The translations under genes and the position numbers were made by a program. The notes beneath the pieces were generated by a model. That model ran no database searches. It was not told the origin of the DNA and saw nothing but the letters and a program-made list of their open reading frames with translations. From IMG/VR virus record IMGVR_UViG_2802429241_000009: DNA of 39,485 nt, one strand, 5' to 3'. Source of the DNA: a virus. Taxonomy: Duplodnaviria > Heunggongvirae > Uroviricota > Caudoviricetes. This document shows, piece after piece, positions 4,966-34,007 of this stretch (its first letter is position 1; each line of letters opens with the position of its first letter).

Positions 4966-4980
4966 TTACCGTTGAGGTAA
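4966..4980. promoter_or_regulatory. Operator-like palindrome TTACC-N5-GGTAA (left operator region, downstream of PL-like promoter)
   Basis: Exact 5+5 inverted repeat; an extra TTACC half-site at 4953..4957; 62 bp from the site at 5028. Confidence 0.55.
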
Positions 4981-5739: not shown

Positions 5740-5754
5740 TTACCCAACAGGTAA
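5740..5754. promoter_or_regulatory. Operator-like palindrome TTACC-N5-GGTAA (immunity region site 1)
   Basis: Exact inverted repeat between the divergent repressor and Cro-like genes. Confidence 0.6.
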
Positions 5755-13811: not shown

Positions 13812-13888
13812 TGGCGTGGCATGCAGGATTCGAACCTGCGACCAACCGCTTAGAAGGCGGTTGCTCTGTCCGACTGAGCTAATGCCAC
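13812..13888 (-). tRNA. tRNA-Arg (anticodon UCU), phage-borne
   Basis: 77 nt with full cloverleaf: 7-bp acceptor GTGGCAT/ATGCCAC, D-stem GCTC/GAGC, anticodon stem ACCGC/GCGGT with loop CTTCTAA, T-arm GCAGG-TTCGAAT-CCTGC, encoded CCA; close to E. coli argU as recalled. Confidence 0.85.
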
Positions 13889-14210: not shown

Positions 14211-14225
14211 TTACCTTAAAGGTAA
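14211..14225. promoter_or_regulatory. Operator-like palindrome TTACC-N5-GGTAA upstream of the portal-proximal genes
   Basis: Exact; in the noncoding region between the tRNA and the structural genes. Confidence 0.5.
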
Positions 14226-31051: not shown

Positions 31052-31074
31052 AAAAAAAGCCCGCAGCGCTGGCT
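31052..31074 (-). terminator. Intrinsic terminator at the 3' end of the 179-aa membrane protein gene
   Basis: Minus-strand imperfect hairpin overlapping the stop codon followed by TTTTTTTG. Confidence 0.5.
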
Positions 31075-31613
31075 TACCAAAACTTGTACCACGGGGATTT
31101 ATCCTTCAATGGGCAATCCTTCCATCGTGTGGCCAACCATTCATATTCTTTAAAATATGTGTTTATGTTTTCTTTTTCTCTAATGGCTTGTATAAGAGGT
31201 AGCGCAATCTGATAGTTATTTACAACGGAGCTGTAAAATACTTCCTTAATCATGGTCTCATCATAAGTTTTCCGCTTCACGCTCACAGCCATGCGTTCGT
31301 AGAAACCTAGACAGTAAATTATTTCTCTCTTCTCTGTCTTTTCTTCATCCGTAAGATCAGCCTGCCCATTGCTTGGATACATATAAGAGCGGAATGATTT
31401 GTTCGATTCGTGAATGCGGCGCATAGTAGATAGGCCTTTCTTATAATCTACATCAAACCTGCTTTCACCAAGGAATACTGAAGTGTGTACTTTTCTCGCT
31501 GTATTTACATTATAAATAATAGTAGCGATAGCTATGAACAAGCCAAGCGAAACCGCGACTGCACTTACGATTTGAGCCACAGCCATGGCAAATTGCATTT
31601 CTTCACTTAACAC
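31074..31613 (-). CDS. Membrane-anchored hypothetical protein (179 aa), AT-rich gene; candidate superinfection-exclusion or defence protein
   Basis: GTG start after GGAGA; N-terminal TM (AMAVAQIVSAVAVSLGLFIAIATIIY); visibly lower GC than neighbours; hairpin/U-run structures at both ends. Confidence 0.55.
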   Translation of the reverse strand: MLSEEMQFAMAVAQIVSAVAVSLGLFIAIATIIYNVNTARKVHTSVFLGESRFDVDYKKGLSTMRRIHESNKSFRSYMYPSNGQADLTDEEKTEKREIIYCLGFYERMAVSVKRKTYDETMIKEVFYSSVVNNYQIALPLIQAIREKENINTYFKEYEWLATRWKDCPLKDKSPWYKFW

Positions 31614-31653: not shown

Positions 31654-31822
31654 TCATTAAACTATCCGAATGTTAAACGCCTTCGTACTCGTCAAATTTT
31701 CTCATGTGGGCTCCTCCTGTATCGGTGCATAATCGCTATGGATCACCCGTGAGGTAATAGTAAGCTATTCACCTGCAATCTGTACAGAATTATTTAAAGG
31801 CACATCCCTGTGCCGCCGCTCG

Positions 31823-32509
31823 TCAGAAGAACCCTGCCTTGTCGTTGATGTACTCCGCGTGCGTCTGGATATCACGCAGGCATTTGCTCACACCGACGAT
31901 GTAGCAGAACATGGTGGTCAACTCCGCCGCCGCGCCCGATACGTCGTGCCCGTCTTCCTGTAACTGGTTCAGCAGATTCATCAGCAGTGAGTTCTCCGTC
32001 AGGCCGAGAACACCAGACGGCGAGTGAATCAGGCTGCGGTAGCCTGGCTTCAGCGGGGCGCTGTAGGTTTTGTTCTCTATCTTCATCGCCTGCATCACTG
32101 CTGACGCCGTGGCGTTGGCTACCTGGTCGGCAACCATCTTTATGCGTTCTTCCTGCGGGAGCGAGTTTTTAATGTAACTTCCGGTGCGGCGGATCTGAGG
32201 AAGAACCTCACCTGTAACCCATTTACGAAAGCGGTAGGGGATAGTGCCTGGTGTCACCGCATCGCGGCAGCGGAGGATCAGTGTGTAGAGGCCTGACTCG
32301 CTGATAATATTGGTTTCGCCTTGACGACCTAAGTTAAATTTAGCCCTTTCATCATCATCAAGAGATTTGATTGACATGGTGGGGTTTGTCAGTTGAAGAG
32401 CTTTAATAACGTCTTTGGCAACAAACCAAGGATTTCCATCAATAACAATGGCTCGAATGGTTGCTTCTGATTCAAAATGAAAAACAGATGGGGTTACGTT
32501 AGCAGTCAT
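31823..32509 (-). CDS. BRO-N domain antirepressor-like protein
   Basis: N-terminal SVFHFESEATIRAIVIDGNPWFVAKDVIKALQL resembles the BRO-N signature; AGGTG SD before the ATG; long structured leader upstream. Confidence 0.7.
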   Translation of the reverse strand: MTANVTPSVFHFESEATIRAIVIDGNPWFVAKDVIKALQLTNPTMSIKSLDDDERAKFNLGRQGETNIISESGLYTLILRCRDAVTPGTIPYRFRKWVTGEVLPQIRRTGSYIKNSLPQEERIKMVADQVANATASAVMQAMKIENKTYSAPLKPGYRSLIHSPSGVLGLTENSLLMNLLNQLQEDGHDVSGAAAELTTMFCYIVGVSKCLRDIQTHAEYINDKAGFF

Positions 32510-32667
32510 GGCAATCACCTTTTAGTATGGTTAATCACCACCTGAGGTGCAAATCTCGTTGGTGGTGAGACGTACAGGGTTTGCACTACCGGCTAAAAGG
32601 ACCCGGCGCACCTTTCGGTGCCCCTGCACGTCCCACCATAATTCTGGCATGACTGTGCTATACGCAT

Positions 32668-32780: not shown

Positions 32781-32795
32781 TTACCGCAAAGGTAA
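32781..32795. promoter_or_regulatory. Operator-like palindrome TTACC-N5-GGTAA adjacent to a candidate leftward promoter of the antirepressor leader
   Basis: Exact; abuts the candidate -35 (TTTACA on the minus strand). Confidence 0.5.
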
Positions 32796-32873
32796 TGATA
32801 AACGCTGATAAATATAAAAATCAACCGTATTTGGTTGATTGCGTTTAACGCTTGATCACCTGAAAGCAAGATA

Positions 32874-32888
32874 TTACCTTTAAGGTAA
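32874..32888. promoter_or_regulatory. Operator-like palindrome TTACC-N5-GGTAA just upstream of the zinc-ribbon protein gene
   Basis: Exact; overlaps the alternative ATG at 32888. Confidence 0.5.
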
Positions 32889-32908
32889 TGTTATTGTGGG
32901 GAAAAGCA

Positions 32909-33637
32909 ATGGAAGTTTTCTGGATAGTTGTTGGTGTGGTTGCGGTGATTATTTACGTTATCAACCAGAACAAGACTAAGATCTCTGATCGTACGGTCGT
33001 TAATCATAACAAAACGATAAAGACCGAAGATGGGGAGATAACGATTAATCGTACACAGGTGATAGAACACACCTCTACTCAGTTTCAAAAAACTGGAGGT
33101 AATGCGCCTAATATTTCCGCACCTCCTGCTTATGATAGTGCGGTAATCCAGACATATTATAAACAGCAGGAGTTAGCAAAAGAGAGGCAACTGATTCAGC
33201 CAAAGCCGTTTACAGCTGAGCTTCCACCTGGAGTGTCAACGCGTCCGGCATATCATGGAAGATTCCCTGGTGATGACATATCGTCTCAGTCATCTAAAAA
33301 AGCACCTCAGGCAGTATCAGAGCCAGCAAGAATACCTTCTGTATCGCCGCCAAAAGAAGAATCAGCTAACAGAGTTTCAAGTGGTAGCAAGCAGTGCTTG
33401 CGATGCAGAATAAACCTTCCATATGAAAAATTCAGGAAATCGTCAAAAAATCCAGATGGATTGACTAAGTGGTGTGCAAGGTGTCTCGATGGCCCAAAGA
33501 ATACACGCCATATGAAGTGGTGCCCAATTTGTAATGTCCGCAGAAAACGAACCAGTTTTTACCCTAATAATCAAAATGCGGATGGCTTAATGGCATGGTG
33601 CAAAACGTGCTGGGACGAGCACAAAGCGAAACGATAG
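32909..33637 (+). CDS. Membrane-anchored protein with a tandem C-terminal zinc-ribbon-like repeat
   Basis: N-terminal TM (VFWIVVGVVAVIIYVI); Ser/Pro-rich linker; two repeats of C-x2-C-x(17-20)-DGL-x3-WC-x2-C; ATG at 32888 is an alternative start. Confidence 0.55.
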   Translation: MEVFWIVVGVVAVIIYVINQNKTKISDRTVVNHNKTIKTEDGEITINRTQVIEHTSTQFQKTGGNAPNISAPPAYDSAVIQTYYKQQELAKERQLIQPKPFTAELPPGVSTRPAYHGRFPGDDISSQSSKKAPQAVSEPARIPSVSPPKEESANRVSSGSKQCLRCRINLPYEKFRKSSKNPDGLTKWCARCLDGPKNTRHMKWCPICNVRRKRTSFYPNNQNADGLMAWCKTCWDEHKAKR

Positions 33638-33660
33638 GCCGCTCTTGCGGCCTTTTCTTT
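33637..33660 (+). terminator. Intrinsic terminator after the zinc-ribbon protein gene, between convergent genes
   Basis: GGCCGC-TCTT-GCGGCC followed by TTTTCTTT. Confidence 0.65.
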
Positions 33661-33916
33661 ATGTGGTTTGTTTTCGTAGTTGTTCGGCACAATAGTCGAG
33701 ATGTGTTTGCAGATCCTGCATAGACATCTGTGAGCTGGTGACGTAGTTAATCAGTGCAGTCAGTTCGGCAAGTGGGCCATCGACATTAAATCCATCCTTA
33801 TCGAGATCCCGGAGTAATTTCATCAAGTGCGATCCCTCCACCAGTGATCTGACGCCTCCCGGCGTGTGAATCCTTTCGGTAAATCCGTCTTCCAGTGGAT
33901 AGTGATACCGCTGCAT
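33659..33916 (-). CDS. Small antirepressor-domain protein (85 aa), putatively LexA-controlled
   Basis: Homologous by eye to the C-terminal about 80 aa of the BRO-N protein at 31823..32509 (shared IH.P.GV, LM.LL, DG..V.G..AELT, D.QTH..Y); GGAGAAG SD; LexA-box-like site 21 nt upstream. Confidence 0.55.
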   Translation of the reverse strand: MQRYHYPLEDGFTERIHTPGGVRSLVEGSHLMKLLRDLDKDGFNVDGPLAELTALINYVTSSQMSMQDLQTHLDYCAEQLRKQTT

Positions 33917-33935: not shown

Positions 33936-33955
33936 AACTGTATATTTATACAGTA
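33936..33955. promoter_or_regulatory. LexA box (SOS box) candidate
   Basis: AACTGTATATTTATACAGTA: CTGT-N8-ACAG with an all-A/T spacer, 18 of 20 matches to TACTGTATATATATACAGTA as recalled; 21 nt upstream of the ATG of the minus-strand gene 33659..33916. Confidence 0.7.
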
Positions 33956-33992: not shown

Positions 33993-34007
33993 TTACCTGA
34001 AAGGTAA
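33993..34007. promoter_or_regulatory. Operator-like palindrome TTACC-N5-GGTAA in the divergent region between the small antirepressor-domain gene and the tailspike
   Basis: Exact inverted repeat. Confidence 0.5.

Follow-up and report, generated by a model that had tools for sequence, protein, structure and literature searches.

Why a temperate phage should place a small membrane-anchored zinc-finger protein under its lysogeny repressor is the question raised by one locus of the IMG/VR virus record IMGVR_UViG_2802429241_000009 (Duplodnaviria; Heunggongvirae; Uroviricota; Caudoviricetes), a stretch of 39,485 nucleotides that was analyzed whole and is called the window below. Judged by its sequence, the element is an epsilon15/TL-2011b-like E. 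coli prophage of the podovirus type, in which the zinc-finger gene (32909..33637, plus strand) appears to form a single-gene transcription unit. It is possible, if doubtful, that its product represents a new kind of exclusion or defense factor or else a membrane-linked input to the lysogeny switch, namely a nuclease-free tandem zinc-finger DNA binder repeatedly wired to master repressors. What makes the gene a good candidate for a new phage-exclusion or switch factor is that it is wired to the lysogeny repressor both here and in unrelated phages.

The gene and its ribosome-binding site are as follows:
32909..33637, plus strand: coding sequence of 242 amino acids plus stop, a member of PHROG 6762
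32898..32902, plus strand: Shine-Dalgarno sequence GGGGA, 6 nt 5' of the ATG at 32909

The plus-strand open reading frame (ORF) reported here by a first-pass annotation, a model's reading of the letters of the window, exists (32888..33637, 249 amino acids in full), and only its start has to move, from 32888 to 32909. Among 5.8 billion proteins searched, 41 relatives were identified, from prophages of Escherichia, Superficieibacter, Enterobacter, Citrobacter, Salmonella, Serratia, Providencia, and others, and 28 homologues were used for the alignment. All 41 begin at the Met equivalent to ATG 32909 (MEVFW...), which has its own Shine-Dalgarno sequence, so the true protein has 242 rather than 249 residues. 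The start at ATG 32888 was rejected, as its 7-residue extension occurs in no homologue, the codon lies inside an operator, and the Shine-Dalgarno sequence would be badly spaced. PHROG 6762, a family of unknown function, matched with an E-value of 1.2e-150 and 501 bits, with ORF residues 8-249 covering profile positions 1-242 of 242.

The ratio of nonsynonymous to synonymous substitution rates against close relatives was 0.25-0.43 in 5 of 6 comparisons, the sixth, with 13 nucleotide differences, giving 0.94. The locus was identified in 133 of 5426 complete E. coli genomes (2.5%), chromosomal every time, and the gene was intact in 129 of the 5426. Among 50,697 phage records, only TL-2011b, Yersinia YeP4-6, and Aeromonas phiARM81mr carried the gene. 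The window and Escherichia phage TL-2011b are about 97% identical over the gene's stretch, and the TL-2011b record (JQ011317.1 34153-35241) describes the intact gene and the neighboring C4/isrK region only as a misc_feature "similar to hypothetical protein", with no coding sequence or RNA genes annotated. The TL-2011b copy was considered as a pseudogene and rejected, as its 5' end is identical except for one Shine-Dalgarno base (GAGGA there); it is merely unannotated. These comparisons indicate a real, conserved prophage gene under selection.

We next give the parts of the protein, with residues numbered in the 242-residue form:
32915..32968, plus strand: predicted N-terminal transmembrane anchor, residues 3-20
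32969..33088, plus strand: conserved juxtamembrane segment, residues 21-60 (NQNKT...KTIKTEDGEI...), with a predicted beta-hairpin
33194..33373, plus strand: Pro/Ser-rich linker, residues 96-155
33389..33493, plus strand: zinc unit 1, residues 161-195, with Cys163, 166, 189, and 192
33515..33619, plus strand: zinc unit 2, residues 203-237, with Cys205, 208, 231, and 234 and a basic RRKR at residues 212-215

The N-terminal transmembrane helix and the Ser/Pro-rich linker described in the first-pass annotation were both recovered, the former as a prediction. AlphaFold2 (AF2) models residues 3-20 as a helix with a predicted local distance difference test score (pLDDT) of about 90, and in 24 of 25 sequences scored there is no lysine or arginine before this helix and there are 3-5 in the 15 residues that come next; the one sequence that departs from this, P0033, has an annotated N-terminal extension that confuses its tally. 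Because of this positive charge bias on the C-terminal side of the helix, the protein is predicted to lie N-out/C-in, and one hydrophobic helix combined with such a bias describes, by prediction, a single-pass anchor of the inner membrane. The positive-inside rule predicts that only Met-Glu lies outside and that all remaining residues are cytoplasmic, a placement that fits eight zinc-type cysteines. Both the charge bias and the homology to cytoplasmic zinc units led us to reject a periplasmic C-terminus with disulfide bonds. In the juxtamembrane segment, N21, T23, T39, G42, and E43 are invariant or nearly so in the alignment, the hairpin modeled at residues 26-55 has low confidence, and the segment may serve oligomerization or partner binding. 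The alignment and the AlphaFold model further place a short helix at residues 77-95. The linker contains 11 Pro and 9 Ser in 60 residues, is disordered in the AF2 model (pLDDT <50), and differs greatly in length between homologues. Beyond it, the C-terminal module (residues 156-242) is modeled confidently, with pLDDT 88-94 (about 90 for unit 1), and this domain carries 20 Lys/Arg against 6 Asp/Glu, giving an isoelectric point of 9.9.

Both repeats of the module read exactly C-x2-C-x16-D-G-L-x2-W-C-x2-C, at residues 163-192 and 205-234, and the two units share 12 of 35 positions. Two Cys4 repeats had already been recognized in the first-pass annotation, in the form C-x2-C-x(17-20)-DGL-x3-WC-x2-C; the repeats stand, and the spacers are corrected to x16 and x2. 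All 8 cysteines, both Asp, and both Trp are invariant across the 28 homologues, down to 28% identity, and K161, K180, D183, G184, and W188 of unit 1 are invariant as well. The earlier label "zinc-ribbon-like" can be kept only as an approximation, since in the model each unit has its second CxxC where a helix begins, as in treble-clef/beta-beta-alpha folds, whereas a classical zinc ribbon has both CxxC knuckles in beta-hairpins of a three-stranded sheet.

The domain had previously been left unrecognized, and hidden Markov model (HMM) and structure work now assigns it to the Cys4 units of beta-beta-alpha-Me nucleases, with Hpy99I and PacI as the points of comparison and Stc1 just below its cut-off. 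Unit 1 matched the N-terminal zinc site of PacI in an HMM search of PDB sequences, and 41 BFVD matches at E ≤ 1e-3 were mostly HNH, endonuclease VII, restriction endonuclease (beta-beta-alpha-Me), Stc1, or zinc-finger proteins. In the PHROG comparison, the units aligned with N-terminal portions of endonuclease VII, HNH endonuclease, and primase families and also with a "Lar-like" family. A full-length Foldseek search against the PDB was uninformative. Stc1 (PF12898) was the sole Pfam match, scoring 20.9-21.0 bits (E 5e-4) with the window protein against a cut-off of 24.8, and at E ≤ 0.1 it was detected in 21 of the 28 family members (best E 1.2e-4); by sequence, the zinc module is related to Stc1, though it is not a curated Stc1 member.

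Each unit has the layout of a beta-beta-alpha-Me/HNH/endonuclease VII-type Cys4 structural zinc unit, with one CxxC in hairpin 1 and the other at a strand end/helix start. Hpy99I contains two beta4-alpha2 repeats, in each of which the Cys4 ligands of a zinc come from one CxxC of hairpin 1 and another of helix 1. Both of the repeats touch DNA, and catalysis is confined to the second, with Asp148, His149, and Asn165 (PMC2699513). In the AlphaFold model, both units of the window protein are laid out as Hpy99I repeats. The catalytic His of the D-H pair and the metal-ligand Asn/His after the second CxxC are absent, and no His is conserved in the 28 sequences. Compared with Hpy99I, PacI, and T4 endonuclease VII-type nucleases, the window protein has D-G for D-H (D183 and D225 are each followed by Gly), has Leu193 (unit 1) or Trp/Met after the second CxxC, and adds a transmembrane helix and a long linker. 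With Gly after the Asp, Leu or Trp after the second CxxC, and no conserved His, the module reads as a non-catalytic derivative of nuclease-type (HNH/endonuclease VII) zinc units. Nuclease activity was rejected on the absence of the catalytic residues. By analogy with these relatives, we infer a module that binds nucleic acid, most probably DNA, but does not cut it.

A profile of the module matched 6579 protein clusters at E ≤ 1e-3, which are mostly soluble and hold 2-11 repeats; some are fused to superfamily 1 or 2 (SF1/SF2) helicases, HEAT repeats, or winged helix-turn-helix (wHTH) domains, and about 45 of the best 150 clusters are transmembrane-anchored two-finger proteins like the window protein. 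The signature K-x-C-x2-C...F...K...DG...C-x2-C is common to the window family, Stc1, and the soluble multi-finger proteins, but those relatives are soluble, many with 3-11 repeats, whereas the window family has exactly two units behind a transmembrane anchor. As a separate observation, the zinc-unit repeat family as a whole is very large and barely captured by Pfam. It includes large soluble proteins (P0043, P0172, P0076, P0171) with the same unit in up to 11 copies, and Pfam fusions among such multi-finger proteins comprise ResIII/DEAD helicase, SF1 helicase (AAA_11/12), and HEAT repeats, with a J-domain in P0171 as a candidate seen by eye alone.

The kinship with Stc1 raises the alternative that the protein is a protein-protein adaptor in the manner of Stc1 or LIM domains, one that would bring a host or phage protein from the cytoplasm to the membrane and whose ligand would not be nucleic acid. 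We consider this improbable, as the best structure and sequence matches are DNA-contacting nuclease units and nuclease-associated fingers, the positive charge is very high with a conserved basic stretch, and soluble relatives are fused to helicases and wHTH domains. A Lar-like anti-restriction role, in which the protein would shield phage DNA from membrane-associated type I restriction enzymes, draws on the match of unit 2 to PHROG 5558, "Lar-like restriction alleviation protein" (E 2.9e-9), and early repressor-controlled expression would fit it. The match spans only the generic Cys4 unit, however; Pfam Lar was not among the 25 most frequent of 27 families matched by the 28 members (E ≤ 0.1), nuclease-associated fingers match more strongly, and membrane anchoring is left unexplained, so that this is the most implausible of the explanations considered.

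The control region of the gene, together with the repressor to which it appears to respond, comprises the following features:
32852..32857, plus strand: -35-like hexamer TTGATC, 17 bp upstream of TACCTT, a putative promoter element
32873..32889, unstranded: operator ATTACCTTTAAGGTAAT of the CI-like repressor, a 17-bp palindrome with 8-nt arms and the core TTACC-N5-GGTAA at 32874-32888
33636..33663, plus strand: intrinsic terminator, with a stem at 33636-33653 followed by TTTCTTTATG, overlapping the stop codon
5100..5684, minus strand: CI-like repressor gene, 194 amino acids, matching PHROG repressor families and Pfam HTH_3
4966, 5028, 5740, 5788, 8021, 8083, 11395, 11413, 14211, 31743, 32781, 32874, and 33993: the 13 operators

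The palindrome TTACC-N5-GGTAA occurs in 13 copies in the window, against 0.66 expected by chance. Four of them flank the repressor gene, those at 4966 and 5028 on one side and those at 5740 and 5788 on the other, and the palindrome was therefore read as the operator of the prophage CI-like repressor. At the zinc-finger gene it is matched exactly and overlaps the core promoter, with the -10-like TACCTT (32875-32880) inside the operator. CI bound there would occlude the -10 and the transcription start, and because the -10 lies within the operator, the gene is predicted to be silent in a stable lysogen. CI as an activator was rejected, as the operator center is only 28 nt from the ATG and transcription would have to start within the ORF for CI to sit in an activating position. 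No LexA box was found at the zinc-finger gene, the sole canonical box being at a neighboring gene for an 85-residue protein. The first-pass annotation had the gene begin at an exact operator palindrome and end with its own terminator. The palindrome is indeed exact, although it lies in the promoter/5' untranslated region and not at the first codon (32909), and the terminator is there: a GC-rich hairpin with a 7-bp stem, 6 GC pairs, and a loop of 4 (-15.2 kcal/mol, z -4.25), with a U tract directly past the stop codon, as expected of Rho-independent termination.

Two kinds of repeat further upstream were noted beside this promoter. A perfect palindrome, TGTGACATGTCACA, lies about 50 nt upstream of the homologue's -35 in L002 and L062-L067 (Superficieibacter, Enterobacter, and Citrobacter-type loci). 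Its window counterpart is a different inverted repeat:
32819..32840, unstranded: inverted repeat AATCAACC...GGTTGATT between the divergent promoters, with a terminator-like score on the minus strand
The predicted fold of this repeat has an energy of -9 to -10 kcal/mol on either strand (z about -4), and such repeats could be sites for a second regulator or terminators for antisense transcription.

The same operator was identified at the same distance from the start codon in L002, L003, and L062-L070, whose proteins are 50-63% identical and whose neighbors differ. The -35/17/TACCTT geometry is also the same in L003, L062-L067, and L069/L070, L002 being without a canonical -35, and the form TTGAnC-17-TACCTT was noted in L003, L063, L066, L067, and L069. 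Where immunity specificity differs, other palindromes stand at that place, for example TTAACCTACTGGGTTAA in L071 and L076. The sequences thus indicate an operator-promoter wiring that is conserved in epsilon15-like prophages. A pattern scan of genome contigs with narrow patterns returned 12 loci.

Other lineages connect the gene to immunity modules in other ways. In phiARM81mr, the homologue p22 begins 19 nt after cI with its own Shine-Dalgarno sequence, and a terminator and then the leftward early region lie downstream; in L094 the homologue begins 18 nt after a cI gene with HTH_3 and S24 domains, and in L134, L139, and L101 it lies in an island that has cI on one side and the recombination (PL-side) genes on the other. 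L102 and L103 have it convergent with cI and divergent from the leftward early genes, and the repeats of the cI-cro region recur upstream of it in L102. In L092/L093 and L100 the homologue comes after an Arc-family gene, which diverges from arc and a KilA-N antirepressor, as in the layout of P22 immI. KilA-N or Bro-N antirepressors adjoin the gene in the window, L003, L136, and L141. A TIR-domain protein (TIR_2, E 1e-30; L131 1224-3190, minus strand) lies two genes from the homologue in L131, with a 361-residue ORF between, and this metagenomic locus looks like a defense island. Downstream neighbors vary by locus, and no conserved partner gene was apparent.

Lambda rexAB sits behind cI and P22 sieA behind mnt; both are exclusion genes, and slots beside cI typically hold exclusion genes rather than regulators. 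Like them, the homologues lie behind cI (phiARM81mr, L094, L134) or behind an Arc/Mnt-type gene (L092/L093, L100) and encode a predicted membrane product. Unlike them, the window protein is single-pass with a cytoplasmic zinc module, by prediction, shows no detectable sequence similarity to either system, and is encoded by a gene predicted to be CI-repressed, not CI-co-expressed. Because the family is sporadic, restricted to temperate phages, and found in slots that classically hold exclusion genes, we tentatively favor a role in superinfection exclusion or defense that acts through DNA at the inner membrane. The N-out anchor and the Pro/Ser leash would hold the basic DNA-binding head at the inner membrane, on its cytoplasmic side. 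On infection or induction, with the repressor missing or inactivated, the gene would be switched on together with the divergent C4/isrK-antirepressor operon, and the head would bind or trap a competing phage's genome as it arrives at the membrane. In the window phage, exclusion would thus operate during the repressor-free window of time.

SNIPE, a membrane-bound nuclease that cleaves phage DNA during injection, likewise has an N-out single transmembrane segment near its N-terminus and a cytoplasmic, positively charged DNA-binding domain at the membrane (PMC13190303). The window protein differs in having neither DUF4041 nor GIY-YIG in Pfam searches and does not belong to SNIPE, and its gene is phage-encoded and predicted to be repressor-controlled; by analogy, SNIPE would be a precedent for acting on DNA at its point of entry.

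Several points weigh against an exclusion role. All family members are annotated as hypothetical, PADLOC and NCBIfam each returned 0 hits (PADLOC at E ≤ 0.1), and no specific literature was found on the family accessions, on an Stc1 domain in phage, or on membrane-tethered DNA-binding defense. Classical prophage exclusion genes are expressed in lysogens, whereas the window operator predicts repression there; the cI-linked homologues should be on. The regulatory regimes, read from sequence, thus disagree on timing, and the only period they would share is early infection and establishment. With two predicted periplasmic residues, the protein could not engage the tail or ejection complex of an incoming phage from outside, in the way that known superinfection-exclusion (Sie) proteins may, and nuclease and other effector domains are absent from it. 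Treble-clef, Stc1, and LIM-like fingers are capable of binding proteins as well, and we infer, rather than observe, the DNA binding, zinc binding, topology, and promoter activity on which the exclusion role would depend.

As the two regimes coincide only in early infection and establishment, a part in the lysis-lysogeny decision stays alive. Here, the tethered fingers would act on a regulatory partner at the membrane, by sequestering or sensing it, and would thereby tune induction or the establishment of lysogeny; the candidates for this partner are the repressor, an antirepressor, their mRNAs, a host factor such as a protease substrate, or the C4/isrK RNAs. The gene adjoins cI, Mnt/Arc-type repressors, or antirepressors in almost every lineage examined, it shares its control region and repressor with the C4/isrK-ant operon in the window, and either regime, behind cI or CI-repressed, permits expression early after infection, when the decision falls. 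However, the family is sporadic, with few phage records, and hence no core part of a switch; it lacks a conserved partner gene; core regulator genes are rarely separate cassettes with their own terminator; and the habitual occupants of the slots beside cI, as described above, count against it. We regard this role as unlikely.

The design also resembles that of phi29 p16.7, which has a transmembrane anchor, a spacer, and a cytoplasmic C-terminal DNA-binding domain and organizes phage DNA replication. An anchor of the phage's own genome to the membrane, for replication, transcription, or packaging, would share this arrangement of N-terminal helix, spacer, and C-terminal DNA-binding domain, and expression is predicted in the absence of the repressor, alongside other early functions. 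The DNA-binding fold is unrelated, however, and no p16.7-like match was found in the profile search of PDB sequences. The gene is missing from most relatives with the same replication and packaging machinery, and it is sporadic and occupies accessory/immunity slots, never lying with replication genes or in a replication operon. Its co-transcription with cI in several phages would further mean that it is made in lysogens, where no such replication occurs, which makes this explanation quite unlikely.

Finally, a host take-over or "kil"-type function would have the protein tether the nucleoid to the membrane after induction and so block division, segregation, or transcription. The artificial membrane-tethered DNA binder MalF-TM-Fis pulls DNA to the membrane and is toxic if strongly expressed, which sets a precedent for such toxicity (PMC13190303), and tight operator control with a weak -10 would suit a toxic product. 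At least 3 lineages, however, translate the gene from a cI or mnt-like transcript, implying continuous production in healthy lysogens, and it is intact in the 129 complete E. coli genomes counted above; we hold this function to be very unlikely.

Among these readings, exclusion or defense at the inner membrane is the one we tentatively favor. The surrounding control logic includes the following neighboring features:
32781..32795, unstranded: second CI operator, at the divergent antirepressor promoter TTGATT-18-TATCAT (minus strand)
31823-32518, minus strand: Bro-N antirepressor gene ant
32558-32643, minus strand: C4 antisense RNA, 78 bits
32668-32744, minus strand: isrK-like Hfq-binding small RNA, 67 bits
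33659-33916, minus strand: gene for an 85-residue protein, PHROG 450, homologous to the C-terminal ~85 residues of ant
33936-33955: canonical LexA box TAACTGTATATTTATACAGTAT, about 20 nt upstream of the gene for the 85-residue protein, with the operator at 33993 beyond
31074-31613, minus strand: DUF4760 membrane protein gene, PHROG 2284 (unknown function), downstream of ant
13812-13888, minus strand: tRNA-Arg(tct), with a TTGACA-17-TACCTT promoter whose -10 lies inside the operator at 14211-14225

The first-pass annotation had the zinc-finger gene diverging from the antirepressor promoter region, and the minus-strand isrK, C4 RNA, and ant bear this out. The isrK and C4 RNAs lie in tandem within the leader of ant, which by sequence is a P1/P7 immI-type control module joined with a Gifsy-type IsrK element. 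The repressor has a YdaS/Cro-like helix-turn-helix (HTH) match at residues 21-61 and an HTH_3 match at residues 106-147, with weak RstR-like similarity, and no S24 peptidase domain was detected in it; presumably it is not RecA-cleavable and is instead inactivated by antirepressors. The gene for the 85-residue protein is probably an SOS-controlled small antirepressor that triggers induction, by analogy with the logic of 186 Tum, Gifsy, and N15 AntC. Further operators precede a RusA-like resolvase gene and tRNA-Arg; others lie where the small terminase gene starts, at the ant operon, and in the interval from the gene for the 85-residue protein to the tailspike gene. The tRNA-Arg promoter has the same operator-over-TACCTT design as the zinc-finger gene, and the phage tRNA appears to be repressor-controlled. 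A further site lies before the DUF4760 gene, operator-like with one mismatch (31743-31757), and this gene, another accessory gene of the same island, may be a member of the CI regulon.

In P1, a C4-controlled antirepressor operon is under the phage repressor, and C1 operators are scattered over the genome. The window phage resembles P1/P7 immI in its C4-controlled antirepressor operon next to the zinc-finger gene, under a repressor with 13 scattered operators, but differs in being an epsilon15/TL-2011b-like podovirus with a symmetric TTACC-N5-GGTAA operator and a two-HTH CI-like protein. We know of no P1 counterpart of the zinc-finger gene.

The zinc unit itself is already known as an HNH/endonuclease VII-associated, Stc1-like finger, and PHROG 6762 is catalogued though uncharacterized. 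The combination of a transmembrane anchor, a leash, and two dead nuclease-type fingers, wired repeatedly to an immunity switch, was not found described in the literature. Whatever its function, this is a clean and easily testable single gene, with no apparent partner and with a predicted promoter, operator, and terminator. The surrounding control logic makes a useful model of how a podovirus can carry a P1-like scattered regulon, comprising a two-HTH, presumably non-cleavable repressor, 13 operators, a small antirepressor-like gene with a LexA box, and a C4/isrK-controlled antirepressor. If the exclusion reading is true, a catalytically dead nuclease-type zinc module on a flexible leash would be a new mechanism of superinfection exclusion or defense and an effector-free counterpart to the membrane nuclease SNIPE, and temperate phages of Enterobacterales, Acinetobacter, Aeromonas, and marine gamma-proteobacteria would share an unrecognized way of handling DNA at the inner membrane.

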